64,000 nt of DNA, taken from contig OX597816.1 of the NCBI GenBank assembly GCA_951406725.2, positions 127,100,001-127,164,000 of the forward strand, read 5' to 3'. Origin of the DNA: Octopus vulgaris. Lineage: Eukaryota. Shown piece by piece: positions 4,357 to 59,193 of this stretch. Every line of letters begins with the position of its first letter. Within the stretch, counting starts at the first letter, position 1. The notes under the pieces are model-generated. The model ran no database searches. It was not told where the DNA came from and saw nothing but the letters and a program-made list of their open reading frames with translations. Position numbers and translations under genes: made by a program.

Positions 4357-4681
4357 GGCACAGGAGTTACTGTGTGGTAGCTTGCTTACCAACCACACGA
4401 TTCTAGGTTCAGTCCCACTGCATGGAACCTTGGGCAAGTGTCTTCTACTATAACCTTGGGCTGACCAAAGCCTTGTGAGTGGATTTGGTAGATGGAAACT
4501 GAAAGAAGCTCATCATGTGTATATATATATACAGCATATATAGTATGCTTATATGCTTGTACAGATGAATTATGTTCCATCTTGCGGGATGTTTATATGT
4601 ATATTCTATGATTAAATGTTCGAATTATGTAATGTTATGTGGATGACCTTGCATTTGTTTGTTCTATAACCTTAGTTTGAT

Positions 4682-4712
<31 letters not shown>

Positions 4713-4938
4713 ATATATGTATATGCATGTGTTTATGTGTCTGTGCTTGTCTCCCCATCATCACTTGACAGCCAATGTTGGTGTGTTTACATGCCCATAA
4801 CTAAGTAGTTCGGCTAAAGAGACCGACAGAATAAGTACTATGTTTACAAAGAATAAGTCCTGGAGTCGATTTTTTTCGATTAAAGGCAGTGCTCCAGCAT
4901 GGCCACAGTCAAATGACTGAAACAAATAAAAGAATAAA
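4357..4938 (+). mobile_element. tRNA-derived CORE-type SINE (octopus OR/OK-like, 'family A'), with internal (TA)n and ~140-bp insert
   Basis: Head GGTTCAGTCCCACTG (B-box-like), CCTTGGGCAAGTGTCTT core, tail CAAATGACTGAAACAAATAAAAGA; four other copies in the window. Confidence 0.85.
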
Positions 4939-9434: not shown

Positions 9435-9836
9435 GGCACCAGTAGGGCTGTGTGGTTAAAAGATTGCTTCCCAACGATATGGTTCTGGGTTCAGTCCCAC
9501 TGCATGGCACCTTGGGCATGTGTCTTCTACTATAGTCTTGGACTAAGTAAAGCCTTGTGAGTGGATCTGGAAGATGGAAACTGAATGAAGCCCATTGTAT
9601 ATATATATATATATATATGTATTTATATTTAAATGTGTGTGTCTGTGTTTGTCCCCCCACCATCGCTTCATAACCAATGTTAGTGTGTTTATGTCCCTAA
9701 AACTTAGCAGTTCAGTAAAAGGAACTGATAAAATAAGTACCAGGCTTACAAAGAATAAGTCTTGGGCTCGATTTCTTTGACTAAAGGTTGTGCTCTTGCA
9801 CGACTACAGTCAAATGACTGAAACATGTAAAAGAGT
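9435..9836 (+). mobile_element. SINE family A
   Basis: Same head, core and tail as 4357-4938. Confidence 0.85.
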
Positions 9837-10789
9837 ATATATATATAAGCACACAGATAATATATGATATAAAAAGCATATATAAAATATATATTATATA
9901 TAGCATAATACACACATACACACACCAATTTTTGTTATGTAGTGTTTAAGTAAAAGAATGTTAGATAAATTCAATAATGTCCATCAAGTTTATTTGAAGC
10001 ATCTTGAAAACTATGGAAAATTATACAATTTTAGAGTACAATTTCCTATTACAAATGTACAATGACTCTTCACTTTGTTTTGTCCAAACAAATGCATATA
10101 ATGATTGCATTCTCAATAAATTAATCTAAATTGTCTATTTTCACTGGAAATCAAGTGTGTAATTTTAATGACAATAACATTAAGGCCATAATGCTGAATA
10201 ACTTAAATATCTTTTCTTAGTAATTTGAAATTGAAATTAAGTAGTCAAATGATTTTTCTCACATATTTTGAGAAAAATATATCTAATTATATGTGTCTAT
10301 GTATGCATGAGTACATGCATTAATGAATCTATTTATTCATGACATGACAATATAATACATTAAATCATCCAAATGTCTGCACTTTCATCTACTGACTTTA
10401 TGATGAAGATTGAGATTGTGAGGCTCATGTCAAAGTATTAAGATTATAAATAAAGACAAACAGTACCACATGGAATCGAAATTAGGTCAGGAATTATTTA
10501 ACTGTGTATCATGTATCAATTTGCCTTTAGCATTATTATTACTGGAAGCTCTTCTTCCATGGTGATGGACTCCATGCAGATGGTGATGCATGATCTTGAT
10601 ATTGAATTCTTTCCCATAAGTCAGTGCTATAGATCTGCTTAAGGCAATGCATGTGAAACTGTTGTAAACCCTTAAGGGTAGTACATGGTCTATGCCTCAC
10701 AGCCCTAAGGGGGATGGGCAAAACCACAGTAAGGTAAACATGAATGTTAGTATTAAACTGAGCACCTTATCCAGAGGCAGAATAGTGAC

Positions 10790-11960
10790 AGAGTTATTTT
10801 GCAAGCCCAAATTTACCTCCACTACTACTCCAATCATCCACATCATATAATTTGGTCAAATCTGAAATCCCAATTTTTGAGGATAAAACGGATTTGTACT
10901 GACACAGGAGTTTACTAGAAACATGTAAATGCTTTTGTATACCATTATGCCAAATGCGATTACAGTGAAACATGATTAAAGAAAATAGTAAATGACATAG
11001 CTAAGATTAGCAAAGAAAGTCAAACTTTCCCTTAATGATTAACTGGCACCAAAATTTCATTGGCATTTCAAAAGTGTTGAATGAAAGTTACCAGCATGTT
11101 GTGGAAAAATATCCTTGTTTCAAACAGATATTTCCTCAGTCACCTATTGTAGCCTTTAGATGGAATAAAAATATAAGAGGACTATTGACTTCTATTTCTG
11201 ATTCCAAGAAAACTATGATTGGAGTATCTGCATGCTGTACCTTGTAAAACAGCCACAAGAAAGGTAAGCCCTGTTTATTGTGCAACAACACGAGTCAAGT
11301 GAATTCTATTAAGAATCATAACAGAAATGTTATGATTTATACAGAAGATGGGACATGTAAAGATTCCCATTTGCTGTACATGGCAGAATGTATGAAATAC
11401 AACTTGATTTATGTTGGTTGTATAACAGAACAATTAAACAAAAGATTTAATAGGCACAATAACAGTAGTTCAACAGAACTGGCCGAACATTTTGCTTCAA
11501 ATGGCTGCAATTTTGAAAATGACTTGAAAGTGTATATTCTCAGAAAATATTCTGAATCTGCATCACTTACAATACTCAAAATGCACGTGGAGAAATATGT
11601 TTGTGAGTTATCAACATCACACACTAGAGGAATAAATAAAATGACAAGAGAATATCATCAAATTTATACAAAACTGTTTGATTAAATATTCTTCTTCTTT
11701 ACCCTTTTCTGTCTTCTTTCCTTCTTTTTTCTTTTTGTTTTCTGTCTTTTTCGTTTTGCCAGTTATAAAATTGAAACTTAAAGACTGATGATGTCATTCC
11801 ATTAATGTGTGGACGCTGGTTGCTCTCGTTCATAGTTGAGATTTGTATTTCTATAATTTTGAATTTTTATCATTTTTTATTTTGAACTCAACAAAGTCAA
11901 GCCTGCTATTGAAATATCGTTCAGCTAATAAAATATCTGTTACAATTGCATCTCACTCTT
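10790..11960 (+). mobile_element. Decayed Penelope-like element 3' part (RT C-terminus, GIY-YIG endonuclease, 3' UTR)
   Basis: AQIYLHYYSNHPHHIIWSNLKSQFLRIKRICTD; PIVAFRWNKNIR; ORF 11278-11685 has GTCKDSHLLYMAECMKYNLIYVGC...LNKRFNRH and GINK motifs. Confidence 0.85.
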
Positions 11961-12655: not shown

Positions 12656-12689
12656 ATCATCATTATTATTATCATTATCATTATTATTA

Positions 12690-12903
12690 ATGTGGCAAGC
12701 TGGCAGAATTGTTAGCACTCCAGACAAAATACTTAGCAGTATTTCATCCGTCATTACCTTATGAGTTCAAATACTGCTGAGTTCAACTTTGCCTTTCATC
12801 CTTTCGAAGTTGATAAATTAAGTACCAGTGAAAACACTGGGGTCAATATAATCGACTTATCCCCTCCCCCAAAATGGCTGCCCTTGTGGCAAAATTTGAA
12901 ACC
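12690..12903 (+). mobile_element. tRNA-derived SINE 'family B'
   Basis: GCTGGCAGAATTGTTAGCA...GAGTTCAAAT...TTTGCCTTTCATCCTTTC...AAAATTTGAAACC followed by ATT repeats; many copies in the window. Confidence 0.85.
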
Positions 12904-24815: not shown

Positions 24816-26178
24816 AATTATTATCTTCAAGTTCCAAAGCATAGATAGAGAAAAGGAAGAGACAGTTACAGGGAAGAAAAGACAAAATCAGCCTTTAAAA
24901 TAGTTCTTAAAAGTAGAACCTAGCTAAGAACAAGCTTTAATGGAATAAAGCCATTTTCGTTTTCTAAGATTTTCTCCCCTTTCTCTTGTATTTCATTTTT
25001 CTCTTTGTCTGTGCATGTTACTTGCTTTCCTTGGCTTCTGTGAAACTTGAAAAATGTCTTCTCATCAGAGAATTCACCTTGACTATCCCTCCATCAGGCT
25101 CCTTCTCATTAGGGAACTCAGCTCATCTATCCCCACTATTGGGTTCCTTAAAACCTGTCATAATGCATTCTCTTCACAACTAGTACTAAGTCATCAACGC
25201 CATTTTGAGATTACTTTCACAAATCTTTATTCCTATACATACATAATATACTTCCAACATCTCTCTCTTTCTCCATTGTTACTTTATATTGCCAACATCC
25301 CACTTTCTCCCTTTGTTACTTTAGACCCATATTCTCTGTATATAGATTCTCTATAAAACTTGTGCATGTGTGTTGGTGTTTCCATCCAAGTAAATATATT
25401 GGATGTATGTGTATATGTCAGGCCATTCCTATATGTAGTAGGTAACAGATAATTCAGTACAATCTGGTATATGTTAGTTAGTTAGTTAGTTAGTTAATTT
25501 GGCTCAAAAGCAAATAGCAAGGCCGATTGGGTTGATGACTAATCTGGCAGACACCAAGCTAGCATGGTGAGGAGGGCTGCTCACAATTCAGCAGGTCAAA
25601 TATAAAATTTGTCAAAATATTGATTAACCCACTACAGAGACAGTGGCTGTCCAGCAGTAACACTGGGAACTACAAAATGACAGAATGTGAGAAAGCATCC
25701 AGAAGGCCACTGTGAGTAATGCTTAGACATGTGCTCATTGGCCATGGCGAAGGTAGCCTTTCTTGGAGAAAGTCACTTTAAATAAAAGCTGTAGCAGCAG
25801 TCTTGATGAAAAAATTACAAATAGAAATCATAATCATGGATGTTTTTGAAAACTTAGAATCCTCGGTGCAACATTAATGATGTGCGTGTGTGTATACATA
25901 CACACACACACGAGTTCTCGGACTAATTATCTATATACATATAAAATTCACTGCATGTGTGTTTCCTTTATGCATGGCCAAACCACTGGATCAATCCATA
26001 CCAGATTTGGCATGAAGGTTTTTCATTACTCAGGGAAGGTTTTGCCCATATAGGGGGGATGCAGCTCCCCCCATAGACCTTGCAGTCTGTCTGTCTATCT
26101 ATCTATCTACCTATCCATCTGTCTGTCTACCTATCTATCAATCTATTTATCTCGCTCTCTCTCTATATATATATATAC

Positions 26179-26242
<64 letters not shown>

Positions 26243-26246
<4 letters not shown>

Positions 26247-26645
26247 GTAACAGAAAAGGAGGAATTTCGATTATAAGCTATTAAAAAAGGAAAATACATA
26301 CACTTTACATAGTTTTAATATCATTTTTAATATATCAACCGGTTTCACTTTCGCTATTCATGATATTACGGTTTACTTATTTGAATATGTATTTTCTTGA
26401 GAAGAAATTTTTGTCCATGTTGTGTGTGATGATATTTATGAGTGAATTACTTCACAAGTAGAAAAATAAGGAGAAGTAATTGGTTATCGTTATTATTGTT
26501 GTGGTGGTGGGCAAGGGAGGTAACCGTTCAGCTTTCGGCAAGGGGAGGGGAATATATATATGTGCACACAAAAAATTGGTTTTGAAAAACTTGTTTAGTG
26601 AGGGGATTTATGTACAGTGATGTAATCGTAAATTGAAATATGTAA
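26243..26645 (-). mobile_element. Solo Penelope 3' end/pLTR fragment between (TA)n runs
   Basis: Contains a hammerhead-like motif, and its AAGGGAGGTAAC motif resembles the 3' UTR of the PLE at 30168-32007. Confidence 0.55.
26332..26366 (-). ncRNA. Minimal hammerhead ribozyme, A3-U8 core variant
   Basis: AUAUC AUGAAUA GC-GAAA-GU GAAA CCGG U U GAUAU: 5-bp stem I, 2-bp stem II with GAAA loop, palindromic stem III, GUU site. Confidence 0.7.
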
Positions 26646-27239
26646 ATATATATTCATATATATATATACAGCTTGTGTATATATATATATCATCATCATC
26701 GTTTATCTATCTAGCTATCTATATATATATATATATATATATGGACGTGTAATTTTATTCAGTACAATATTTTATGATTTTAGTCATTAGTATTTGTACA
26801 TTTTCTATATTTACCATGTCAATTAAGTTTTTAAGAAATTAAAAGGTAAGTTCATGGATAAATAACAGTAATTGATTGTACATAATTTTCTGTTTTATTT
26901 TTTATATTCCATGAAACATAAGTTGTGACAGATGTTGTTGGTAAAACAATGCAATATTAATTACACAGTACATTGTTTGAGATTACAGGTTAAAATAGAA
27001 CAGAGTTCAGACAAGAATATCATTATTTAAATATAATCATAAAAACGATATATCTTAGTTTGCAGCCATCATGACCAGTTTGCATGAATATCATTCCGAG
27101 AATTTTCATTGTTATTTCTGTGCTTTACAGAGTCAATTGGATAAAATGTGTAGAAAATGTTGGTGTTCATAAAAAGTTTGTGTTGTAGCTTCAAATGTGT
27201 GTGAACATATTATAGCCAGATGCAAAGATAGAAAAAATA

Positions 27240-29270
27240 AAGTATGTATTTTTAAATTGGTGGAAATTATTCTGTCATATCTAAAGCATAAATCTGACTA
27301 CACATCAAATGAGAAAGAAAATAAGATTGCTCAGCTATAACTGCCATATAAGACAAAACAAGTGAAATATCCATAAGAAAGAAAAGCTTTTTTACCTGCT
27401 TAATGTGGCCCCAAAATGGCTCAGTTTCTCATTGGGTACAAGCTCTAATTGACTAAAATAACAAGCATTACAATGGTGTGTATAAAATTGCCATATGCTA
27501 GGTTTAACTGGCCTAAAAATTGACAACTAATCAATGAGCCAAACTTTCTAACTGGCTGAAATAATACACATGACAATGATGTAACTAACATGTTGGCATG
27601 AATTCACAAGATTAACCTGTTCTTAGATTGCTGGAAAAAACAGTAATTGATACGAATCAACATAGAAACAACAGACAGCAAAAACCAAATGATGATGCAA
27701 CATTGCTTAGATGAGTGGATTGTAAAGTTTAAGAGTTGGGACCAGTAGAAATATATGACATATGCATGCTCAAGATATAAACTTGGAAGTTTGTATGATA
27801 TGTACGCAAGTTAAACAAGTTAATCTGTTTAATATGCACATCATATTTAAGCATGTGAATGTACGATGCATATGGGTTGTGTAAAATGTGCTTTCATTCA
27901 AGCAAATCTGCAGAAAATGAATACAGTATGAGTTCCATGCATATTGGTCTTCAGAAAAGTGAATTGAATGATATTAGCATTCTACAAAAATGATGTATGA
28001 AGTTTGCTTTTGTGCTACCAAGTGCTCTAAGTGAATGCTAATTTGGGGCTAAAGGTGAAAAATTGTAAGCAATAAAATGTCAGTCGCTCCTTAGCCACAT
28101 TAGTTGGCAAGTGCATTATGCCTGAATTCATATTAAGTGTTTGTGTATGTGTGTGAGTGTGCGTGCACTTATGTTAGTGTTTGTGAGTGTGTTTACGTGT
28201 ATGCTTATGCGAGCATTTGTGAGTGTGTGTGTATACTTATGTGAGTGTTTGTATGTGTGTGTGTGTGTGTCTGTGTGTGAGTATAAATACTTGGTCACTC
28301 CATTTGAGAGATAAATATGTACCAGAAAAATGCCTATAAAATGTTTTGCCAGGTAGGCAGATTTGGAAAATACATTTTTAAAACAGCTAAAATTTAAAAT
28401 GTTCAATCAGAGTTTAAAATAAAAATAAAAAAAGTAACAAAATTAACAGTATACATAATCAAAGTAAAAGTGTTTAAGATATAGTCTGTTTATACAATTC
28501 AGGAATTGCAGCAGTAGTTTTACCAACCTTAGTGTTTCTTTTCCTCAAATTCTGTAGAGTAAGTGATTTCATGTTAGTCATATTCTGTCCTTAAGCTTTC
28601 TTGTGTAAAAGGTGGTAGTATTGCCACTTTACAGTTCAGTTGACCAATGTTCTGCATAGCAGTAACTGTTTCATCATTGTTGCTTACTATTATTTCTGAC
28701 TGAAACAAAACAGTAATGGTTGCAAGAGAGTAGCTCTGGAATTATATTGAGTGTCAAACAGAAAACAGACCTCAAACACATGTGTGTGAGAGAGATTGTC
28801 CAAAAGTTATTTTTATGTTTCTGAAAACTGACTAGCGAAAGTGTGTAGTAAATGTTCATTTCAATGAAATAATTTGTATTATGGAGTCAAGTGTGTGTGA
28901 TCAGATAACAGCCAGCAGAGTTAAATGTGTGCAATCAGATAACAGTCAGATAATGGCCAAAGGAGAAAAAATGAAGCTCTTGTTTTTAAATTGGTGGAAA
29001 TTGCTCTGTCATGGCTAAAGCACAAAGGTGACCCTAGCCAAAGATGATAGAATTAGTTTAACCATAGTAGTTGCTGGTGTGGTGAAGAGAAACTTGTTTG
29101 GGCATGAGCAGATTTGACAAGAACGCATAAAGATTTTTGATGTGCTTGATATAGCTTGAAACTGGCTCAATGGAGAAATAGTTACTGATTAACTGAAATT
29201 TCTAATTGGATAAAGTTTCTGTTTGGCTAAAATAACAAACATCAGAATGCTTGCAAGAAATACATCAACT
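27240..29270 (+). repeat. Two diverged direct copies of an unclassified repeat (~27240-27580 and ~28975-29270)
   Basis: TTTTTAAATTGGTGGAAATT..TCTGTCAT..CTAAAGCA at 27249 and 28983, and CTAAAATAACAA.CAT in both. Confidence 0.55.
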
Positions 29271-29480
29271 TAGTAAGAATTTTTAAATGGCTTTACATGT
29301 GCATTAATTAGACAGATATAACAAACACACTTTATAGAAGATTAATGTAAACTTTGACGCATCAAGAATTAAATGGAAACTGAATACTAAGGTGCTTGTG
29401 TGATCTTAAATAGCTCTTCCATACTATAATTTCTCTATCTTCTCTTCTCCCTTTCTTTGTTTGTGTGTGTCCCTCTCTCT

Positions 29481-29486
<6 letters not shown>

Positions 29487-29525
<39 letters not shown>
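29487..29525. repeat. (CT)n microsatellite
   Basis: Pure CT run. Confidence 0.95.
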
Positions 29526-29527
<2 letters not shown>

Positions 29528-30303
29528 GAGTGAGTGGACAAATGAAAGAAGAGTACTCAAAACATTTATTAGGAGTTACATGTATGGCTCAAAGTAGTTT
29601 GATTCAAATTCGTTGGTACTCTGAGTTTCAAGTGTGATGCTAATCTTCAGCCATTTTGAATTTGAATTAAACTGTTTTGCTCTATACATACATGCATGTA
29701 TTTATATATAGAGAGGTTTATATATATATATAAACCTCTTTCTAGGTTTACAATGATACTATTATCACTCTGAAAGCTCACCATAAATCTGTTTGGGTGT
29801 GCGTTCATCTGCCATTTGAACAATATGGCCAGACCATCTCATTTGGTTTTTCAGAATCATTGCTTTAATTGAAGTGATGCTTGCAGACTCAAGGATATCT
29901 GTGTTTGGAGTAAAATAACTTCATTTAATGTTTAAAATGCAATGAAGGCAATTTTGGTGGAATTGTTCTAACAATTTGAAAGGTATTTCATAACATGCTC
30001 ATGCTTCGGAAGAATACAACAGGGATGGTAGGACAAATGATTAGTAAAGAGCCAATTTTGTGTTGTTATTTTTATGTCATTGGTGTCAAATGCATGACTC
30101 CAAATCACCAAATCCTTGTGCTGCCCTTTGAATTCACAGATGTATGCAAACATATATATATATATATAAGAAAATAGTAAAGTGTGAAAAAACGACAGAA
30201 GGCTTAAATGTTAAAAAATATATATATTTGTGTCAAAATGTCTGGAGAATATTGGAAAAACTTTTTTCCTTTCCTTAAAATGACATAATTTAAAAATTTT
30301 TTA

Positions 30304-30343
30304 AAGAAATTACCGGTTTCGCGTGTAGCTTTTCAAATTTCTT
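30304..30343 (-). ncRNA. Minimal hammerhead ribozyme, U3-A8 core variant, in the PLE 3' UTR
   Basis: AAGAAAU UUGAAAA GC-UACAC-GC GAAA CCGG U A AUUUCUU: perfect 7-bp stem I, palindromic stem III, GUA site; 135 nt after the PLE stop, same strand. Confidence 0.8.
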
Positions 30344-30478
30344 GTGACGTTATGTTTATATTGCATGGAGTTATCGTTGTGTTTATTTTCAGGAGATTTC
30401 TAAATAAGGGGAGGTAGTGAGTGATTTCTTCCGGTGTAAGGGAGATAATTGCTTAAAAATTTTTTTCCTTTTCCCTTG

Positions 30479-31992
30479 TTAATTTCTCTGTGTCAGTATG
30501 TTCGGATGGTTGAGTCTGGGTTTGTACTTTTCAATGAAGAATGTTTCCTTGTTCAGTCTCATTTGTGTTGATGATCCGAAAGCACATTGGTAAAATGGGA
30601 AGATTAAAAATTGTGGCAGTAGTTGCTTTGCGCATTTCTCAATGTGCTCACTAAAAGGTATCATTCTATATTCTGGGAATGCAATCTGTTGTCGATGCAG
30701 TGTGCATCTACGCCTGAGTGATAGTCCCGTGGAACCCACGTAGTCTTGGTGGCAGCCCGAGCATTTAATGACATAAATTATGTTTTCAGAGGCACAAGTA
30801 AAGTTAGATTTGATCTTGAATTTCTATCCCTCTTTAAAGAAGAATTCTGATCCTTCCAATAGGTTAGGACATGTTGCACAGTTCGATCTACCACATTTTT
30901 TTACTTTTGCATCCGTAATTTTAGAAGACAATTTTGCCTTTGTGAGAATCTTTTTAAGTGATTTAGGCTGTTTGTAGCTTTTAATGATTTGGTGTATGTT
31001 TAGAATTTCCTTTAATTTTGGGTTTTTATGAAGTATTGGTAAATTCTGGGTGATGATGGTGAAGGCTTCTTTGTTTCTGGGGTTGTATGTAGATATGTAA
31101 GGTAGTATTTTCGGGGAAGGTGTGTTGTTGTGTTGAACTTTTCTTAAAGTTTCTATGTTGATTTCTGTTGCACGTCTGATCCCATCCTCTATGAGTTGAG
31201 CTGGGTAATGTCTGTCAATTAGGGTGTTTTTGAGTTCTTGCAGTCTAAAGTTCCTGGTATTTTGTTCTGACACTATTGTGCATATCCTTCTTGCAAGGTT
31301 GAAGGGGATGTTTGTTTTAGTGTGTCTTGGGTGGCATGAATTAAAAAGAAGGTATTGTTTGGCGTCTGTGGCTTTGTAAAAAATGTCTGTTTCTATTTTA
31401 AGGTTAATTTTTTTAATTAGTATATCCAAGAACGGGAGCTCCTTTTGGTTGTATTCCATTGTGAACTGTATATTTGGGTTTATGCTGTTCAATAGGTTTT
31501 TAAATTTTAGGAGTTTATTTATGTTTTCATTCCAGAGAATGAAACAATCGTCTAGGAATCGTTTCCAATTCTCTTTTATGTATTGAGAGAGGGAGTTTCC
31601 AAAGATTGATAGAGATTCCTGGTAAATGATTATTTCCATGTATCCCATTGTTAAGTTCGCAATGACTGGTGCTGCCCTTGTACCCATAGCAATTCCAGAT
31701 TTTTGACGGTAAAATGTATTGTCAAACATGAAGTGGTTATTGTGTAGGATGAATTCAATTGATTTAGTAATGAATTCCTTACTGATCCTTTTTGGTATTT
31801 CTTCCGGAAATTGGTCTAACCAGAACTATTGCCTCCAGTCCATAATTATGAGGTATACTGGTATACAAGTTGACTACATCAAATGAAACCAGGATTGTTT
31901 CTTCCTTGGTTTTTTTGGAAGGTGGTTTAACATATCTAAGTCATCTCTGATATGGCTATCGATATGTTTAAGGAAGGGTTTCAGGAGGATGT
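30479..31992 (-). pseudogene. Penelope RT/GIY-YIG polyprotein (frameshifted)
   Basis: SFDVVNLYTSIP, GIAMGT, RFLDDCF, LPFLDI, YLLFNSCHPRH, CGRSNCATC, then IIYVIKCSGCHQDYVGST...RCTLHRQQI...KPRLN. Confidence 0.93.
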
Positions 31993-32005
31993 CCATACTT
32001 TCTTA

Positions 32006-32064
<59 letters not shown>

Positions 32065-36884: not shown

Positions 36885-37369
36885 ACTGGAGGCACAAGGC
36901 TTCCAATTTGGAAGAAGGGATTAAGTCGATTTCATCGACCCCAGTACGTTACTGGTAATTAATTTATTGAACCAAAAAGATGAAAGGCAAAGTCAACCTC
37001 AGCAGAATTTGAACACAGAATGTAGTGGCAGACGAAATACCTATTTCTTTACTACCCACAGGGGGCTAAACACAGAGAGGATAAACAAGGACAGACAAAT
37101 GGATTAAGTTGATTATATCAACCCCAGTGCGTAACTGGTAATTATTTAATCGACCCTGAAAGGATGAAAGGCAAAGTCGACCTCGGCTGAATTTCAACTC
37201 AGAACGTAGCAGCAGACGAAATACAGCTAAGCATTTCGACTTTGCCTTTCATCCTTTCGAGGTCGATTGAATAAGTACCAGTTGCACACTGGGGTCAATC
37301 TAATCGACTTATTCCCTTTGTCTGTCCTTGTTTGTCCCTTCTATGTTTAGCCCCTTGTGGGAAATAAAG
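36885..37369 (-). mobile_element. SINE family B cluster: two minus copies plus an inverted partial copy
   Basis: GATGAAAGGCAAAGTC twice; 37236-37369 is the reverse complement of 37047-37180; (AAT)n tail at 37372-37440. Confidence 0.85.
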
Positions 37370-37399
37370 GCATAAATAATAATAATAATAATGATGATG

Positions 37400-37440
<41 letters not shown>

Positions 37441-38242
37441 TAGAATAATAATTGGGTGAAAGGAAACTAGAATGATAGCATATAACTCAGTGGAAGCATT
37501 GTAATTAAGCTCAAAAGTGAGAAAGATAGAAACATGTGTTTCATGAAAGTCATAATTCAAAATGAAAATAAGTCAAATTAGAAGCAATAAAACTGAAGCA
37601 ACATTATATCAGTACTCATTTTGATACCGGTAATATAAATATAAAATGATGAGTTTGTTGCTATAAATAATAACACCAATAATTAAAATATTAATTTATC
37701 TAATCAAATCATAATTTTAATTTACACAAATTTCATTTACTACTTAAAATAAACCAATGCTTAATTAAAAAGATTACTGCATTTGATTGAAACTTTAGGA
37801 TTTAATATTTCATACAAAGCGTTATTCTTCATTACTTCAATTTTTTTTTTTTTCAAAATCAGTCTTTTATTTTATCCCAATCTGTTTTGACAGCCATTAA
37901 AACTAATATACATAAATTATCTCTTGTGGCTTTTAAAAAATGTATTGTAGCTACTTGAAAAACAAAACATATCCAACTGAAACATACTGCTTTATTATAA
38001 TCAACAAATGTGAATTTTGAATTGTAGATATTCTGCTAATTCAGATTGCAGCTTCAAAACTAATTAGGTCCTCATATGATAAAAGTTATGTTCCATTTGA
38101 AACCTGATGATGACGACAATGATGACGAATATGATGATGATGATCATCATCATCATTTAGCATCCGTTTTCCATGCTAGCATAGGTTAGATGGTTTGACT
38201 GGAACTGGTAAACTGGAGAGCTACACCAAAATAATAATAATA

Positions 38243-38836
38243 AGAGGGCTCAGACAGTGCAAACCTCTGTAAAGGCAACACCAATGTCCTCTCAACGATT
38301 AACCAAAAATGATTTTTAAAATGAGAATATCTGAAATAAACTCAACTGCTCTCACAAATGAGAATACTAAAAACGAATCCGACCACTCTCAAAACTTAAG
38401 TAAAAAACCTGAAAAATAATCCAAAATCTTTGTCTGGTACCAGATCAATCCCAATGTTAGTCATGGAATGTGAAGGTGACTGTAGAAAATTTAGTAACAG
38501 TAATAAATAGTTTATCATTATCTAGTACAAGCCAAAGTTAACAAATTCACCATTCAAAATAGCTACAGCCTAAAGGGAGATAATTGAGAAAGACTTGAAA
38601 ATTAAGATAAGATCATAATCATGTAAAGTAAATATAACAAATAATCCAGAATCCTTATCCTGTACCAGATCTATCCCAAGAACCAATCAGTTCATGCCAG
38701 TCATGAGGCCAAACATCCCTGAAAGATTCATCCAAATCCATCCAGTGGTTCTTGAGATATCTAGTCCACGGACAAACAAACAAGCAAACACGACTGGAAA
38801 CAACACCTCCACCTTCACTAAGGGGAAGGTAATAAT
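38243..38836 (-). mobile_element. Non-autonomous Helentron/DINE-like (HINE) element
   Basis: Terminal hairpin ACCTCCACCTTCACTAAGGGGAAGGT, (GTTT)n tract, GATATCTCAAGAACCACTGGATGGATTTGGATGAA core, related ACCTCTGTAAAGG at the other end. Confidence 0.6.
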
Positions 38837-38849
38837 TATCCTTACTGCT

Positions 38850-39260
38850 GTAGGCACAAGGCCTGAAATTTAGGAGAGGAGGATAGTCGACTATATCGCC
38901 CCCAGTGTTTCGCTGGTACTTAATTTATTGGCCCCGAAAAGATGAAAGGCAAAGTCAACCTCGGTGGAATTTGAACTCAGAATGTAGCAACTGGTAAAAT
39001 ACCACTAAGAATTTCATCCAGTATGCTAATGCTTCTCCCAGCTCTCTGCCTTAATAACAACAACAATAACAACAACAACAACAACAATAATAATAATAAT
39101 AATGGTTTCAAATTTTAGCACAAGGCCAGCAATTTTGTGGGATTGAATAAGTCGATAGCGTTAGCCCCAGTGCTCAACTGGTATATATTTTATCGACCCT
39201 GAAAGAATGAAAGGCCAAGTCAACCTCAACAGAATTTGATCCTGCCAATTCACTGCCTTC
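38850..39260 (-). mobile_element. Two SINE family B copies separated by (AAC/AAT)n
   Basis: GGCACAAGGCC..., GATGAAAGGCAAAGTCAACCTC...GAATTTGA. Confidence 0.8.
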
Positions 39261-40068
39261 ATAATAATACTAATAACAATCATAATGATAATTTGTTTAT
39301 CTATTGTTTTGATTAAATTGCTCTGTCATAAAAATTGTGACTCATAACCTACTGAGAAATAGCTTTTGTTTTTTTAGCTCCAATAATGTATTGTGTTGCT
39401 GCAGATTCTCTTTTACCCTCAAGGTAAAAGAATTTTTTAATTGTTCATTCACTGAGTATTTGGAGTTAGTTGCAAAGGTCTTCTGCTTTACAACCGAGGA
39501 GCAAATCTTTTAAAAGCTTATTCATTTTTAATTAAATTTTTATGAATATCAAAATTTTAAAATCAAAAGTTGTTCTGTTGTAATGAGTTGTATGTCTGTA
39601 TCTCAGAAATCAAATATCATGATTGATTTATGAATTCATAATATAAATTATATATTTATAATAGTAAAACTATTACTCAAGCATTAGAATAGTTTGTTCT
39701 TTGTTAAAGTTAATTAAGTGTTATTTCAGAACTGAAAATTCATTGGCCTAAGAGTATAAATACAGTATCTCTCAGACAGCACCTGCTTAAGAGCAACACA
39801 AAAAATACATCTACATATATAAACTCAATATATGAAAGCATAGAGAATAAAATTCTACATGTCTGCAGTAAGCTCTTCCCATACAACTCCCATGCAACTC
39901 CAAAATAGCTGGACTAATTTATCTCAAAGAAGACTTGGTTCTTAAATGCTCAGAATACTAAAAACAGACTATGCATGACACAGTTCTATATTTAAGAGAT
40001 GAGGAATTATGTACATTATTTACATTATTCACAATTGACGGACATTTGTCCTCATCTTGTTTGTTGTT

Positions 40069-40114
40069 AATACAACGTTTCGGCTGATATACCCTCCAGC
40101 CTTCATCAGGTATC
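40069..40114 (-). ncRNA. Minimal hammerhead ribozyme (canonical C3-G8, extra A after A9)
   Basis: GAUAC CUGAUGA A GGCUG-GAGGGUAUAU-CAGCC GAAA CG U U GUAUU. Confidence 0.8.
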
Positions 40115-40200
40115 TTGGAGAAATTTCGAACCTGGGTTCTCATTCCTAAGCTATTGAAAAATACCTTAGGAATGAAAACCCAGGTTCAAAATTTCCCCAA

Positions 40201-40243
40201 GAGACCCGATGAAGGCTGGAGGGTATATCAGCCGAAACGTATT
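40201..40243 (+). ncRNA. Mutated hammerhead copy (U4C, 3-nt deletion at the cleavage site)
   Basis: GAGAC CCGAUGA A GGCUG..CAGCC GAAACGUAUU. Confidence 0.55.
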
Positions 40244-40305
40244 AACAACAAACAAGATGAGGACAAATTTCCGTCAATTATAAATAAGATGACACTAATA
40301 TTGAT

Positions 40306-41260: not shown

Positions 41261-42223
41261 CATTAATGTCTTGACGTATGAGTTAATTTGTTCCTGGAGA
41301 CTGCTCATAAAGCAAAAACTCATAAGGCTGAGCAATAATTTCCCATAGTAGCAATGTTATAAATCGTAATTCGTTCCCAGAAAAATATTTTACTTATAAA
41401 ATTAATAATACTTGTAAATAAATAGCAATAAAATAACAGTAGAATGTAAAGAAAATATTAGGTAAAGTAAAAAGAATGTCAAGATCATCTATAATACTCT
41501 TTTACTTGTTTCAGTCATTTGACCATGGACATGCTGGAGCATCATCTTTAGTCGAGCAAGTCAACCCCAGGACTTATTCTTTGTAAGCCTAGTACTTATT
41601 CTATCGGTCTCTTTTGCCGAACTGCTAAGTTACGGGTACGTAAACACACCAGCATCGGTTGTCAAGCGATGTTGGGGGGGTCAAACACAGACACACAAAC
41701 ATATAAACACACATACACACACATATATATACATATATACGACGGGCTTCTTTCAGTTTCCATCTACCAAATTCACTCACAAGACTTTGGTCAGCCTGAG
41801 GCTATAGTAGAAAACACTTGCTCAAGTTGCCATGCAGTGGGACTCAACCCAGAACAACTTAGTTGGTAAGCAAGCTACTTTCCACACAGCCACTCCTGCA
41901 CCTATTATTATATTATTATTGTTTTGTGAATCACTTTCACACATACTAGACTTGTGCACACTATCACTTGTAGATGCAGTCTCCAATTCACAAGCACTTA
42001 TAGACAGGCTTGTAGATTTCTTTTTAGAAAACAAGTCTAGAGTTGTTTGCTCAGAAGAAGCATTTTTTTTTGTGCTCTATAAATTTCTTGAAAACAAGCA
42101 GAAATATTTGTCATGGTAGTTGAAACTTTTGCACTTCATTCAAAATTTGGATCTTGTGCTTTAAAAACAACTCATAAATCCTGGGTCTCATAAAGCAGGT
42201 CCTCATAAAGTGAGGTATTACCG
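41261..42223 (-). mobile_element. Tigger/pogo internal-deletion derivative, interrupted by a SINE
   Basis: TA-flanked degenerate TIRs (CATTAATGTCTTGACGTATGAG / CGGTAATACCTCACTTTATGAG); minus-strand DPNFE*SAKV...CFQEIYR...QTTLDLFSKK Tigger C-terminus. Confidence 0.7.
41495..41902 (-). mobile_element. SINE family A nested in the Tigger element
   Basis: Reverse complement of the family A sequence. Confidence 0.88.
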
Positions 42224-42411
42224 TATCTTTGTTAGTAACCAGCTCAATTCTTACAGGAAAACTTCAACTAACTGAAAGTAGAACACACACACACCTAATA
42301 TCTTTATAGAGATCTCTTTATACATTGTATATGTACATATGTCAAGGACTTTATATTTGGGAGTGCAAAATAAACAGTGTATATCTACCATGATGTAATT
42401 TGTTTGTAATT

Positions 42412-42573
42412 TGTGGCTGTGTGGTAAGTAGCTTGCTAACCAACCATATGGTTCCGGGTTCAGTCCCACTGCGTGGCATCTTGGGCAAGTGTCTTCTGCT
42501 ATAGCCCCGGGCCGACCAATGCCGTGTGAGTGGATTTGGTGGATGGAAACTGAAAGAAGCCTGTCGTATATAT

Positions 42574-42613
<40 letters not shown>

Positions 42614-42821
42614 TTGTGTGTCTGTGTTTGTCCCCCTAGCATTGCTTGACAACCGATGCTGGTGTGTTTACGTCCCCTTCATTTAGCGGTTCAGCAAAAG
42701 AGACCGATAGAATAAGTACTGGGCTTACAAAGAATAAGTCCCGGGGTCGATTTGCTCGACTAAAGGCGGTGCTCCAGCATGGCCGCAGTCAAATGACTGA
42801 AACAAATAAAAGAGTAAAAGA
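42412..42821 (+). mobile_element. SINE family A (young, CpG-rich copy)
   Basis: GGTTCCGGGTTCAGTCCCACTGCG...GGCCGCAGTCAAATGACTGAAACAAATAAAAGAG. Confidence 0.9.
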
Positions 42822-44944
42822 AATCTAATAATATACATTTAGAAGGATTACATCAGGTTAAAACCATATAGAAAACTTAAAATTAAAAGTTTTAGCAATG
42901 CTTGTTCCAGCTAGATAGCACGCCCTCTGGAAAACAAATCCACTTTATGCCACTGAAACAAACAAAACCTATATACATAAATATATATATATATATTGTG
43001 TATATACATAAACATGTGTGTATGTTTTGATCGTTTTTCTTGACTCTGGTATCAAATACTCATGTCACATAACATCCTTCTAACCAGTGAATACAATACC
43101 TTACTTGTACTCTATTTTCCTTGTTTTTTTATATAAAAAGTCCTATAACAAACCCCACTTCATCCTTTTCAAAGTTTACACTTGTTTCCATAAAATAGTC
43201 ATTGTTCTTTCCACTACATACAAAACCAAACCTCTTCCAGAAAATCAGTGACTTCTTGCAGCAATTTCATCATGTCATTGCTTTGTGTACTCACTTTGTG
43301 TTGATTGGAAGTATTTCAATATGAACTATGATCACATCTGTTTTGCTATATATTCTTATGTTTGGGGGAACAGATTTTATCTATCATTTTTATGGAGCAA
43401 TTCACCCTTAGAGTCTGTTCGTATGTTGTCAAAAAAATTATTCCCTCAGTCTCTTCCTCAATTCTCCTTTCTACAAAGTCCCTTCATACTTTAACTCTCT
43501 CTCTCTCTCTCTACATCTACCTTTCACAGTGTTTTTTTTTTATTATTGGAAAAACGCCAGAATAGAAATGTTTTTTGATTTTACTCTTTTGGGCTCTACT
43601 AACTTTTTAAGTATCCCTTCCCAGCAGAAAAAAAATTTTTGTTTCAGGTAGAACTGAAAACTTGTTTTATCTTGTTCTTCCTCTTCAGAATTCCCTAATT
43701 TCTTACATCTGTATTTTTCCAATATAACTGGCCCACGTCTGATTAGGGATGCATAATGCTGTGCATTGTGTGTGGCTAACTATTCTTCAGCTGATTCTTT
43801 CTCCATTCATTGTTTCCTATCCTGTACTTTATTAATGACACTGATATTAAGTCCATTGTTTGTATGACATTTTATGAATTCAATTTGAATTTTAAAATTT
43901 TAAATAAAAATATTCATTACAGGAGCCTTAATTATATTGTTTTCCAGTATTCCAAGATACTTTTACAATTCTACATTTAAGGATTTGATACTCTCACTAT
44001 TAAGAATATTCATTTCAATACTTTTTATGAATTTTCTATACTTCATTGCAACCAAAACAACATTTTTTGCAACCAGATATCTTCCAAATATCACTACTAG
44101 TTACTTGTATGATTTGAAAAGTCTTTTTTTTATCTGTCTTTGTCATAAAGTTCTAAATTGTGAATGAAACAGAGTTGATTTGCTTTTCCTCCATTCTTTC
44201 CTAGTGATTTCCCTTCTTGCTTTTATTTAGATTAATTAAGAAATGGATCAGTCCTATTGGAAATAAGATAGCTGAGTGGCTGTTTCTTTGACAACTTCCA
44301 CTTCTTGGCTGTACATTTGTGGTTTCTATAGCACCACCTGATGAATTTTCATGGTGTTTAAAGAAATGCTTTTTGGGAATGTAAAACTGTTTGTCTGCTT
44401 TGTCTATTTTGTTTTTGGTGGAGTTTGTTTTATTTTCTTATTAAAAATACATAGAAATAACAATAAATTATAATTATTCCCATTATTTTATACATAATAC
44501 TATTAGTATAAACCTCTTTGTTTTAGTGCTGCTATAAATGCAAGTAAATAAGTGGTATTTACTAATGTTGGTGAAGCGCAGGTGTGAACTGTACATAGAG
44601 AAAAATAACATATTTCAAATTACAACTGTAATAAAAGTAACATTTGTATAATTGTGGTGTAGAAAATACTTATGCATAAGTTTCTGTTTGCCCAATGGAA
44701 TTTATTTCTCAACTCTCTTACCTGGCTTGTATACTTCCCAGATTTATAATTCATATTTATAGAAATAGTCTTATATATATATGCTCTTGAATTAAGGCTA
44801 TTTTTGAGTATAGCTTGTGATGACAGAAGATAATGTCACTGATGGAAATAAAAAGAAATGTGTTACAGTAAACTTGGAAAAAATGTAACACTGAAATTAT
44901 TTCCCTTTTGGCTTAAATGTATCTTATTATTAAAGATTTGATAT

Positions 44945-45260
44945 AGGTAGTGAGCTGGAAGAATCATTAGCATACCAGGTGAAATGCTTAGTGGCATTTT
45001 ATCCGTTTTCACATTCTGAGTTCAAATTCCATGAAAATCAACTTTGCTTTTCATCCTCTGGAGATCAAAAAAATAAGTACCTGTAGATTTTGGGGTCGAG
45101 GCCATCGACTTACTCCCTCCCCAAAATTGCTGGCCTTGTGCCAAAATTTGAAATCATTATTTAAAATCAGATTAACGTGAAAAGCTGGCAGAATTGTTAC
45201 TGCACTGGGCAAAATGCTTAGTGGAATTTCGTCCATCTTTACATTCTGAGTTCAAATTCT
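44945..45260 (+). mobile_element. SINE family B plus a partial second head
   Basis: GAGCTGG.AGAAT..TTAGC...CTGAGTTCAAATTC twice. Confidence 0.8.
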
Positions 45261-48200
45261 GGAGTTCCATATGAATAAAATGATTCTATTAGTTTCTGTG
45301 GCACTCATGTATACCTAATAGAAGAGCCGTGACAGGTTAGTACATTCTTTGCATGGATAAGCAAAACAAGCTAAGAAATATTCTTTTTTAAGTTCTGTTT
45401 TATATAAACAAAATGGCTGCTGGAATACTTTTCACTCATTGACAAATAAAACCAGTGGAAATGGTATATCTAACGCATTACCTATTGCTTGAAATTTGTT
45501 ACACAAGATTTTATTGCATCACTAAAGAAATCTGTGTTCTTGAGGTGTTTACAGTATCATCTTTTTTGTGGTGGGGTATTTTTATGCTACATTGGTTTTG
45601 GTTTGTCCTGTTTGTTTTTTGTTAATTTAGTGTTTTATCTGTGAAATTGGAAGATTGTGTCGTATGTGAGTTGTGTTATTTTGTTGAGTGTTGATTATGT
45701 ATCATATATGTTGTGTGACATGTTTCAGTGTCAGACAGTGATTGTGAAGAGATTGTACTCTGTGCACACTGTTATATTATACAACATCACCTGCAGAATG
45801 TGAGTTGTAAGATGTTTATAGTATTGGGTGTTTATTTTGTAAGCATATGAATTGCATCATTTAATTGGACAGTAATTATATAGAGTATTTGGGGCTTGTG
45901 ATATAATTTTATTGGGTGATGATTCTGTTGAGTATGAGCTATGTAAATAGTGTTATTAATAATATTATTAATATTATCAAATTTTTATTATTATTTCACT
46001 GTATCTATTTCATTACATTTTTGTAATTTATCTGTGATTGGTTGCACCAATGGTAAGCTGATTCTTTGTATAACATCTACTGAACACAGTGCTTATCAAC
46101 AAGAAACCATTCACATTCCATCAATTCTCTGGAGCCCCTTGTTAAAGTACAATTGGGTAAAATGTATGTTACTGATTTACTCATTTCCTTATGCACTCTC
46201 TTACTCTTCCTGTCTGGCCACCTTATCTCTCTTTCTCTCTACTTCTCTCTTCAGTTAGCATTGAATTTTTTTACTCTATGATCGATCAAATCTGACAGTA
46301 TTAAGAACTTAGTTATTCCATGTCAATGTAGAAAATATATGCTCACATAACGTACATCATTGTTATTATACAGACACATTAGCATAGAATATACATTGTA
46401 AGTTAGAGGAGTGAATTCAAATTAATTTTAATAATGCTCGACAGGGAAATAATCAAGTTTAATAGACTGAAATAAGTTTTTAGTGCTGAATATTTCTGAT
46501 GTGCACCTGTCTCACCTGATTCATCCCACCAAAATAGCAATGATGGATCAGTCTACATTAAGATTTCAATGATTCCTTTATAAATCAGAAAAAAACAAAA
46601 TAGTTTTGATCAATCATTTGCCCTGGGATTGAAGTGAAGTGCAAATACATTCTTTAATTCTTCAAACCTTAAGATAATGATGGAAAATGATGCATTAAAT
46701 GAAGCACTTGTTAATTGAGAGTATCAAGGTTGGAAACTTGTGTGGCTGAAAAGCAAATTGTACTTGAATAAAGTAAGAATTATGAACAAATTGTTAATCT
46801 TTGTAAAAGATAACATGTTTAGACCAGTAATTTAGAAGGATATAACTATTAAATAACTAGTTATTAGCTTCTTATCTGAAGAACCTCTTCCCCACTTAAA
46901 TGTTATTGTTGTTGGGATATGCTTTGTAGCTATTCCTATCCATATATTCAGAAATATGCCAGCCAGACTAGTATTAATCAAATGTTACTTATACAAAAGT
47001 AAAGTTTATCTGAAAAATGATGTAACATGCCATCAAATATATCAATCAGTTATTTCTGTTACTTAAATATGTATTTTAGTCTTGTTCAAAATATAAATTC
47101 TTATATGTAATTAATAACTAACATGATTTCTCTCTAGATATATTCTATTATATATAATGCAAATCTGAGAAATATGATATGTACAAATTTAGTCAATAAA
47201 TTACACTATTGGTGCCATAAGCAATGAAGGCTATGTCTAGTTCTGAAACTTTGTTCTAATTAGTTACAGCAGTGGATCAGATGAGATCAATGTAGTTAGT
47301 TATTTTGAATTTGTTTTTAAGAAAGGACAGAAGGAATAAAGTGTGACTGGAAGAAAGTTAAATAACAGTTTAAAGATTCACTTTATTCATAAGTAGTTGT
47401 TATGAGAGAGGTGACCAACTCTGACATGAGGAAGATATGAGAAATAAAAGTAGGAAGGTATATATAGCAATTAGAGTGGGACTAAAATGGCTTATGTGAA
47501 CTTCATAAAAAATTGATGATGTGAACTTGATCAAAAATGGATGTTAGTAATTTATTGATAGTAGCTGTGGAATAGCTGGTTACATAAATTACTGTAAGAT
47601 TAAATGTAAAGTGTTTTTAGAAAAATATATCAAAACAAATAATTTTACTAGAATATTTATTGTAATAGTTAAAAAGATGTAAACATGCAGAAGATAACGA
47701 TGATTGCTTTTTGGGAGAGTTTATGTTTTTATGTTATGGTATAATTTGTCTTATCCTCAATGAAATATATGAATCAATGCCTATTGTTTTAGATAAAAAG
47801 AATGAGGATTTCATTTTGTTAAGCACTATATTTGAAATCATGAATCATAATCTTTAACAAGGTTCTTGAGAAACTTTAATGGAAAGTGCCTTACCATTTA
47901 TTTTTATTGTTATTTCAAAATATTTGTATTATGGATCATTTTACATTCTAAAATATAAATTTCTCTTAAATAGATTATGTTAATCTTTAAGGCAACTATT
48001 TATTATTTATACTTTAATATTATCATGAAAAAAAAACTTTTTTGAGAGAAATGTTAATGAATCCACATTGAATATTTCCAATACAAAGGAATCTATTTAT
48101 TAGCATTTAGGCTTTGAAGTTCAAAACCTTTGATGTCTTAACAAATGCATACTTTGGTAACAAACCTGAAAGCTCTAAGGCAAGAAAAATCCTAACATAA

Positions 48201-56623: not shown

Positions 56624-57642
56624 ATTCCATTGGTTGTCCCTCTGCTTTTCTGAATCAAAATTAATAATTTAAATAATTAATTTTTCTAATCACTTAAGGG
56701 TGTAATTTCTAGTTAATTAAAACCCATTGGTGCAATGTATGAGTCTGTTAACTCCCAGTATTAATTGTTCATATAACAACCACCCCTGTATATTTTTCCT
56801 AGTCATTCTTTAAAACTCATACAAGATCAGTGCAGCTAATGCAAAATAACTCATTTTGGAGGTATGTTCTATATGGATGATGGTAATGATGTTAAACTAA
56901 TGCCAACATTCTTTGCCTTCTAATGAGGAAGACAATGATGCAAAGACATTTCTTTTTAAATCAAAGCTATTGGGTATGTATTGGTAGTTTCAAATATTTT
57001 CTGTTAATAAGGAACTTCAATTCTCATCAAACAATTCTAGTCCATGCATGCTAAGAGTACCTAACTACTAATAGGATTTTTTGTTATTATTTACAGTCAT
57101 AACAATAAATGGTGCTGCTAGATTTGAACAAAGTCATTTTCAGGGTTGGCAAACTTATAGTTCTTATTTTGTTTGTTACATTTTTTAGCAAAATGTTCCT
57201 TTTTCTTTGGAGAAGTATTACATATTCTTCTTCATTCCATCTTCAAAGCCAGCCTATATCCTTAATTTTCACTACATGTGTATAATAGTGTCTTACATGC
57301 TATTCTCAAGTAAGAAAAAAAGTTGAAAGACTCTTTTGTTTATCCTGATGCTATATTTTTATAAGTTATGCATTCAAGAGAAGCATTATTCAAAGTTGAT
57401 GCTGATTTTGAAGCAGACTTTCATACTTGTACAAGTACTATTTATGCACTAATTCTCTAGTGTACTAAATTTCAATATGAGAGAGACAATGTTTAGAATT
57501 TAAATTTTACCTGGCTGCCATCAGTTCTGAAATATATATGTGTTGGTGAGATGATATTAGGAAAACAAATCTCAAACACCAGTAAAGCTTTCTCATTATA
57601 GATTGTTGATGTAGCAGTTATTATTTCTCATTTGTATAACAA

Positions 57643-57830
57643 AGGTGGTGAGCTGGCAGAATCGTTAGCACACCAGACAAAATACTCAGCAGCCTTTTAT
57701 CCTGCTTATCATTCTGAGTTCAAATTCTGTTGAGGTCGATTTTGCTTTTCCTCTTTTCAGGGTCAATGAAATGAGTACCAGTTGAGCACTGGGGTTGATG
57801 TAATCAACTTCTCTCCTGCTCCTTGTGCCT
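57643..57830 (+). mobile_element. SINE family B
   Basis: GGTGGTGAGCTGGCAGAATCGTTAGCA...CTGAGTTCAAATTC. Confidence 0.82.
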
Positions 57831-58076: not shown

Positions 58077-58233
58077 GGTGCAGGTGTGGCAGTGTGGTAA
58101 GAAGCTTTCTTCCCAACCACATGGCTCCAGTTTCAATCCCACTGCATGGCACCTTGGGCAAGTGTCTTCTACTATATCCTCGAACCTTGTGAGTGGATTT
58201 GGTAAATGGAAACTGAAAGAAGCCCATTGTATG

Positions 58234-58271
<38 letters not shown>

Positions 58272-58490
58272 TATATATGTATGTATGTGTCTGTGTATGT
58301 TACCCCACTGTCACTTGATAACCAATGTTGGTGTATTTACAACCCTCATAACTTAGTGGTTTGGCAAAAGAGACTGATAGAATAAGTACTAGGCTTACAG
58401 AAAATATGTCCTGGGGTCAATTTGTTCAACTAAAAGTGGTACTCCAGCATGGCTGCAGTCAAATGACTGAAACAAGTAAAACAATGAAAG
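58077..58490 (+). mobile_element. SINE family A
   Basis: Family A head, core and tail. Confidence 0.87.
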
Positions 58491-59193
58491 AAAAAAAATA
58501 AACATTTTAATACCAAAAAATCTTACCGTTTAGAACTTTCAAATCTAAAAAATGGTAGAACTATCTAAAACACAGCTACACTTATGTGCTGTCTTAATTC
58601 TAATATGTTAATTATTTTAATTCCTATGTAAATTATAATGATTTCCTCCTTTAAGTCAAAATATAAAATGGGAACTTTCTAAATAGTTACTTATGTTTTT
58701 GTCTAAAAGTACCTGCATTTGATGAAAGTTTCTGAATTATAGGATTAATGTCTTCTAAATTGAATTTTAAAAAGAATTTCAAAGAAACACAGGTCTATGT
58801 AGGAAATGAAAAGGCAACTTCAACTTCATAACTTTAAAAGTGAAGCTGCTGATTTTTTTATGTGACTGTTATTGTATCTTTTTGATAATAACAGCAAATT
58901 TCATTTTATGATTTATGCATAATCAATTTATTTTATGTAAAAAGAAATCATGGTGTGATTTTTGACCCTTCAAAAACACTTGACTGAACAATTTCCTATG
59001 AATTATTACACTCTTTTCATGAAAAAATGTTCATTTTGTAAATTTCTATTTATAGGAAATAATTAAAAGTCTTGAAAATAACAATTTCTTTAGTAAAATT
59101 TAAAATGCAATCATAAATATTTGAGAATATTGAGAACAGATTTGTGTTTTCTTCCTGGGTGTTTGCATAGAAAATCTATAAAAATATTTCAAA

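Follow-up and report, generated by a model that had tools for sequence, protein, structure and literature searches.

Results

A minimal hammerhead motif and its neighbours in the window

The window (the whole stretch of 64,000 nucleotides of Octopus vulgaris DNA that was analysed) carries a 35-nt motif on the minus strand, 26366 to 26332, with the layout of a minimal type I hammerhead. It is present exactly as a preliminary description of this DNA had written it. The positions of the motif, its host repeat and the related features are given in Table 1. After the 5' arm of stem I the motif begins its core with A3 (26361) and continues through U4, G5, A6, A7, U8 (26356) and A9 to G10.1 (26354) and C10.2; a loop of 4 nt is followed by G11.2, U11.1 (26347), G12 to A15.1 (26346–26343), CCGG, U16.1 (26338) and U17 (26337). 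By hammerhead numbering the cut is predicted to fall after position 17. From the sequence and the family letters (see below), the motif has the hammerhead core, that is U4, G5, A6 and A9, G12, A13 and A14, the A15.1-U16.1 pair, H at position 17 and a three-stem junction, and in this copy stem II holds a G10.1·U11.1 wobble. Positions 3 and 8 are complementary and would form a Watson-Crick A3-U8 pair; the canonical letters C3 and G8 are missing from this copy and from its family, so the core is a variant one. The extra nucleotide between 9 and 10.1 that is usual, though not universal, in the minimal hammerheads of Penelope-like elements (PLEs) is missing here, in the motif at 30336 and at two related loci (L023 and L027). 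At the 26.3-kb locus the motif is single, and tandem units that each carry a hammerhead, a trait of non-LTR retrozymes, were not found there. An alternative register with C at position 3 and an inserted A was rejected, as no G8-A9 would be left and the C2.1-G1.1 pair would be lost.

Table 1. Features of the 26.3-kb locus and of related motifs and elements in the window.
Feature	Position	Strand	Remarks
Host repeat, high-copy, between (TA)n tracts; likely 5'-truncated 3' end (pLTR) of a Neptune-like PLE	26241–26640	−	From depth and flanks; 5' limit approximate
Minimal type I hammerhead motif, A3-U8 core, 35 nt	26332–26366	−	This copy worn at 11.1 and 17
Stem I, 5' arm	26362–26366	−	5 bp with 26332–26336
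Core positions 3–9, AUGAAUA	26355–26361	−	A3 = 26361, U8 = 26356
Stem II, 2 bp, with 4-nt GAAA loop	26347–26354	−	G10.1 = 26354, 11.1 = 26347
G12-A13-A14-A15.1	26343–26346	−	From sequence
Palindrome ACCGGU, predicted to form a 6-bp stem III between two molecules (double hammerhead)	26338–26343	−	Duplex −8.3 kcal/mol
Predicted cut site, after position 17 (26337)	26336–26337	−	From hammerhead numbering; U here, C in the family
Stem I, 3' arm	26332–26336	−	Pairs with the 5' arm
U3-A8 motif, 2-bp stem II and ACCGGU as at 26.3 kb, 7-bp stem I, A17	30304–30343	−	From sequence and descriptor
ORF with RT and C-terminal GIY-YIG, Neptune-like PLE, 5'-truncated, broken	30506–31996	−	Directly upstream of the 30.3-kb motif
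Canonical C3-G8 minimal hammerhead, other family type	40069–40114	−	Extra A after A9, 5–6 bp stem II, 2-nt palindrome
GIY-YIG remnant of the same PLE group, then decayed U3-A8 motif (53501) without GAAA	53157–53541	+	From sequence and profile match

The U3-A8 motif at 30.3 kb lies 169 nt behind the RT-GIY-YIG ORF, in an element placed between (TA)n tracts as at 26.3 kb. This ORF has 283 longer relatives among 3689 candidates, the closest protein being 77% identical, and its Cys-rich linker resembles, by eye, Neptune rows in the supplement of Craig et al. (PMC8557442); Nematis stays an alternative. The element as a whole (30166–32010, minus strand) is a 5'-truncated Neptune-like PLE whose reading frame shifts near 31827 and is interrupted by a stop that separates RT from endonuclease. 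The motif at 53501 (plus strand) has preserved U3-A8 and stem II, but its palindrome is disrupted. The motif reads AAAG in place of GAAA; the description of GAAA as fixed thus holds for three of the four motifs and fails for this one.

Further repeats were observed in the window. The 40069 motif belongs to an inverted pair of hammerhead-bearing repeat ends (40052–40263), the second copy of which (plus strand) has a C at position 4 and lacks three cut-site letters. A remnant of a more distant PLE with GIY-YIG is found at 11005–11800 (plus strand); some 100 nt past its stop there is a GAAA word with a CUGAUGA word after it, an arrangement that fits no ordinary hammerhead and may be a permuted form. 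Two further dispersed families, SINE-like and often in inverted pairs, occupy 4364–4935, 9446–9852, 41495–42831 and 58088–58501, and 12682–12829, 36972–39268, 44937–45261 and 57635–57782, respectively.

Frequency of the motif by chance and in sequence collections

A descriptor of minimal hammerheads yielded three matches in the window, at 26361 (A-U), 30336 (U-A) and 40109 (C-G), and the same three were obtained with or without a required 3-8 pairing; three different 3-8 pairs in one window, as first noted, are thus confirmed. In 300 local block-wise dinucleotide shuffles, matches averaged 0.017 when the 3-8 pair had to be Watson-Crick and 0.12 when any pair was allowed; at least one paired match occurred in 5 of the 300 shuffles and three paired matches in none, a significance that is somewhat overstated since the descriptor was composed with the motifs in view. 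The Rfam hammerhead models gave no match in the window (71 weak matches of any kind) or in two narrow stretches; this test is insensitive to minimal forms, as the canonical motif at 40069 was also unmatched.

The A3-U8 pattern had no matches in viral contigs and 22 in metagenome contigs. In 20 of the latter, stem I amounts to 0–2 bp; the remaining two have a stem I of 4 bp, one with G17 (L006) and the other with U17 (L007). All 22, nearly all of them lacking stem I, were dismissed as chance matches. The element was not matched in phages, the related RT was not found in plasmids, and the RT alignment found nothing in viral contigs.

A3 and U8 at the level of the family

Parts of the region 25300–31800 are contained in 20 runs from 9 studies and 4 organism labels (public assemblies). 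Four runs, one per organism label, were compared over 26240–26600 at 80% likeness, copies below 80% being left out. The repeat is a large dispersed family, with 1001, 1214, 818 and 455 contigs, respectively, on these 361 bases. In run X1 the depth summed over the motif amounted to 36,000–168,000, versus 24–57 for single pieces, which suggests thousands of family copies, although depth is no copy number.

Among the best 40 of 90 variant rows of this comparison, each of which reaches at least about 10% in one run or another, none falls at 26361 or 26356. A second comparison was made over 26312–26392 with a floor of 1%, in which runs X5 and X7 were reused (350, 336, 204 and 3 contigs; the 3 contigs come from X13, a run guessed to be RNA, and were not counted as expression evidence). 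Rows were listed solely at 26347, 26349, 26350, 26352, 26353 and 26354, and none at 26355–26361 despite the high depth, in a table that omits positions close to either end of the stretch (it lacks 26337 and 26369, though both are majority changes in the wider comparison) and that can miss minor letters (26348, at 3–10% in three runs of the wider comparison, is absent); 26361 lies 32 letters from the right end, near the edge zone without listed rows. Within the limits of these comparisons (80% likeness, table edges), A3 and U8 are the letters of the family. The proposal that A3-U8 is a natural variant is therefore upheld at family level, no other letter reaching at least 1% at positions 3–9 in the four runs. 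A canonical or mismatched family core, of which this copy would be a decayed version, was looked for as well, and the family majority was found to read A3 and U8.

The only departures of this copy from its family within the motif stems and the triplet are two C-to-U changes, both at CpG sites. The family has C at 11.1 (91.1–98.7% of depth) and at 17 (91.2–98.9%), positions at which this copy has U, and hence a canonical G10.1-C11.1 pair and a GUC cut triplet; all other core letters of the family are canonical. The G10.1-C11.1 pair, a trait of PLE minimal hammerheads, is accordingly present in the family majority (91–99%), and the view that the stem II G·U of this copy is a decayed G-C is borne out. 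Position 26350 in loop II is polymorphic in the family (45–84%). The 26.3-kb copy is also worn beyond the motif, with many differences from the family majority over 26240–26600. Fixation across copies mirrors the master element and not selection on each copy.

The host repeat and its probable relation to Penelope-like elements

No ORF or profile match was found at 26.2–26.7 kb, and the flanks of the motif were compared with the elements elsewhere in the window. The likeness of the upstream flank to the 30-kb tail was equalled in 62 of 1000 shuffles, and that of the downstream flank to the 53-kb tail in 11 of 1000, both marginal; between the downstream flank and the 30-kb tail there was no likeness (772 of 1000). 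The upstream flank aligns best with the end of the 53-kb GIY-YIG ORF, again at a marginal level (53 of 1000). In the 26240–26600 comparison the depth thins steeply toward the 5' side (about 26600) and opposite-strand joints are present, and together these fit with truncated PLE insertions. No 5' ends were placed from the depth profile, since its dips coincide with indels of this copy. Location in the pLTR of an element with RT and GIY-YIG was found for the motifs at 30336 and 53501; at 26361 there is no ORF match and a marginal likeness of the tail. Judged from these sequence features, the A3-U8 family is likely linked to PLEs.

Opposite-strand joints were seen at 26335/26368, 26366/26445 and 26398/26437, each in single contigs, which is the pattern that inverted PLE insertions should leave. 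In the narrow interval 26321–26335, 11–23 contigs per run agree with the downstream tail as far as 26335, beyond which they diverge into another hammerhead-like sequence whose stem I arm is different; some of these divergent contigs rejoin near 26407. The loose ends at 26335 point to a sibling subfamily, of which no copy was found in the window (2 matches with 2 mismatches, which is chance level).

The 3-8 pair across related elements

A search of genome contigs with the RT alignment yielded 16 loci (L023–L038), five of them close (37–44% identity). These loci sit in bacterial genome assemblies, most likely through contamination from animal hosts. In three of the five close loci a hammerhead of similar layout, with a 4-nt palindrome, lies 154–198 nt behind the ORF: C3-G8 in L023 and L024 and U3-A8 in L027. 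The L024 motif (about 1851–1890) has a U10.1·U11.1 mismatch and a 6-bp stem I. No motif was found in L025, which has a tail of 161 nt, or in L026, which ends within the ORF; their tails are short or missing. Among the 11 distant loci, seven (L028–L032, L034 and L035) have canonical C3-G8 minimal motifs with the usual bulge, like 40069.

All five intact motifs of the close group (26361, 30336, L023, L024 and L027) thus have a Watson-Crick 3-8 pair, of three kinds. In a permutation test, 4 of 120 permutations do as well, the five rows being few and related and 53501 being left out. The covariation that had been proposed across PLE subfamilies stands in so far as all five intact close motifs are paired; the 40069 motif that had been counted with them is of a different family type and not a subfamily of the same element.

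Predicted folding

The palindrome ACCGGU would allow dimer formation, as in PLE minimal hammerheads, with a computed duplex energy of −8.3 kcal/mol; stem III cannot close within one strand, as the loop would have only 2 nt. The double-hammerhead fold of the 26.3-kb copy was computed at −8.7 versus 0.0 for the monomer fold, and the best cofold (−13.3) differs from the double hammerhead. In this copy the probability of an A3-U17 pair, which extends stem I over the cut site, is 0.84. A comparable C3-G17 trap has been proposed for minimal hammerheads (PMC3884650). The CpG-worn 26.3-kb copy is probably inactive in this model, since an A3-U17 pair would close stem I across the cut site. A trap of the same kind is seen in the 30304–30343 motif, where A17 can pair with U3 (P = 0.73).

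Discussion

Proposed function and rival explanations

The 26.3-kb motif is best explained as a minimal type I hammerhead that is worn at CpG sites in this copy and belongs to a high-copy A3-U8 family; the family likely represents the pLTR of a Neptune-like PLE, and its intact form is likely a weak dimer cutter, a reading that we consider rather probable. For the intact family members, a weak, dimer-dependent and probably protein-assisted cleavage after C17 is predicted, with about the same moderate confidence. PLE sense transcripts would contain the motif, in two copies where elements are in tandem or flanked by pLTRs. Pairing between the ACCGGU palindromes of two motifs would create a 6-bp stem III, in which the core and stem II contributed by one strand act upon the triplet and the 3' arm of stem I in the second strand. 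Hammerheads use G12 as the base and the 2'-OH of nucleotide 8 as the acid (PMC6155905), so that base 8 serves via its pair with position 3. An A3-U8 Watson-Crick pair replacing C3-G8 would position the 2'-OH of nucleotide 8, with G12 as the base and a cut after C17. The rate would be low, and the protein of the element would probably be needed as a chaperone; the 26.3-kb copy itself would be inactive through the U17-A3 pairing over the cut site. More tentatively, A3-U8 may be a working natural core, the rarest of the four Watson-Crick options, and the PLE families of this genome may use all four 3-8 pairs (C-G, U-A and A-U are seen) in dimeric, protein-assisted ribozymes of 35–40 nt, in which each family would be addressed through its own stem I and letter 3 would limit the choice at position 17, A3 families avoiding U17.

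A somewhat unlikely alternative, the strongest of those considered, is that the PLE-derived repeat is real and its A3-U8 core no longer cuts, the fold being kept by master-copy descent or protein binding while the family spread without cleavage. In the lizard PLE, hammerhead mutants leave insertion in vitro unaffected and RNA-seq ends were not found at the cut site (PMC11167929), and A3-U8 is not among the rescuing pairs in PMC9901934; stem II has just 2 bp, and a tertiary contact is not evident. These points are to be set against the finding that 3 and 8 both differ from either known state and are nevertheless complementary. Moreover, the family majority retains all other core letters, the G10.1-C11.1 pair, the GUC triplet, stem I and the palindrome, and a mismatched 3-8 pair occurs in none of the five intact close motifs.

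In principle, the motif could cut and be carried by a non-autonomous small element, retrozyme- or SINE-like, that is moved by the PLE enzyme, rather than by a truncated coding PLE; PLE-derived non-autonomous elements have been described (bioRxiv 10.64898/2026.07.22.740005). We regard this as quite improbable. The missing ORF match at 26.2–26.7 kb and the steep drop in depth toward 26600 would agree with such a carrier, but the same 5' thinning is that of 5'-truncated copies and is accompanied by opposite-strand joints, the locus holds a single copy with no tandem array seen, the upstream flank aligns best to the end of the 53-kb GIY-YIG ORF (albeit marginally, 53 of 1000 shuffles), and the placement between (TA)n tracts mirrors that of the 30.3-kb PLE. 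Least probable is that A3-U8 arose by private decay of a canonical core in one copy, or is a chance match in AT-rich DNA: the family majority has A3 and U8 in all compared runs, which contradicts private decay even though the copy is worn at other places, and the three descriptor matches compare with 0.017 per shuffle, even though 22 matches to a similar pattern, nearly all without stem I, turned up in metagenomes.

Comparison with known systems

Minimal hammerheads of metazoan PLEs were described by Cervera and de la Pena 2014 (PMC4209133). The A3-U8 motif shares with them the type I layout, the short stem I, the palindromic stem III implying dimers, the G10.1-C11.1 pair, the AU-rich flanks and the mostly solitary copies from truncated PLEs. 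That study also reports that single PLE minimal motifs show no activity and that dimers or trimers cut slowly, and it contains a published U3-A8 covariation, with about 1,300 matches in Schistosoma. The motif differs in its core, as no compared row of Fig. S3 in PMC4209133 starts the core with A, in its 2-bp stem II, which is longer in most of those rows, and in having no extra nucleotide after A9. Natural 3-8 covariation and stems II of often just two pairs were found by Perreault et al. 2011 (PMC3088659) too and are shared by the present motif; the only swap in the text covered of that paper is U3-A8, so the A-U pair is the difference. The suggestion that the motif may stand for an under-described class finds no support in these two papers: PMC4209133 already describes, for PLEs, dimer-forming minimal hammerheads whose stem III is palindromic, as well as the U3-A8 swap, and in PMC3088659 stems II of 2 bp are frequent. 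In a pairwise-mutant library, G3-C8 alone rescued the pair and the other double mutants of the region, A3-U8 included, were low (PMC9901934); the lizard PLE hammerhead needs its protein, is killed by C3G or G8C and is partly rescued by C3G/G8C (PMC11167929). In these engineered swaps it is the pair that matters and not the letters; they are laboratory mutants, in contrast to the natural family here. The A3-U8 element differs from Neptune-clade PLEs (Craig et al. 2021, PMC8557442) in showing no ORF here, and no copy of the motif was found in the supplement of that paper.

The largest survey of such motifs is reportedly that of Lunse, Weinberg and Breaker 2017, said to comprise small PLE hammerhead variants with a diminished palindromic stem III that cleave as dimers; the A3-U8 motif would have in common with them the diminished palindromic stem III, the PLE association (likely here) and the predicted cleavage as a dimer. 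Przybilski and Hammann 2007 are said to have found all four 3-8 pairs able to cleave, depending on the context. In the literature covered, that is the accessible parts of the cited papers outside the Lunse 2017 alignments and the Perreault 2011 supplements, no report of a natural A3-U8 was found. Of the comparison with Rfam and the PLE literature that had been suggested at the outset, the Rfam part thus gave no match in an insensitive test, and the literature part left A3-U8 without a report and U3-A8 in PLEs as already published.

If A3-U8 cuts, the natural hammerhead core gains a pair that lies outside the standard descriptors (CUGANGA, UUGANAA), and surveys based on these would miss whole PLE families, since the descriptors exclude it. 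If it does not cut, a PLE family can attain a high copy number with a dead core. The C-G, U-A and A-U families in one layout form a natural series on whether PLE hammerheads need to cut, and either outcome refines a known system without adding a new one. Overall, A3-U8 is a genuine core variant, shared across its family, of a ribozyme type that is already known, and not a new class.
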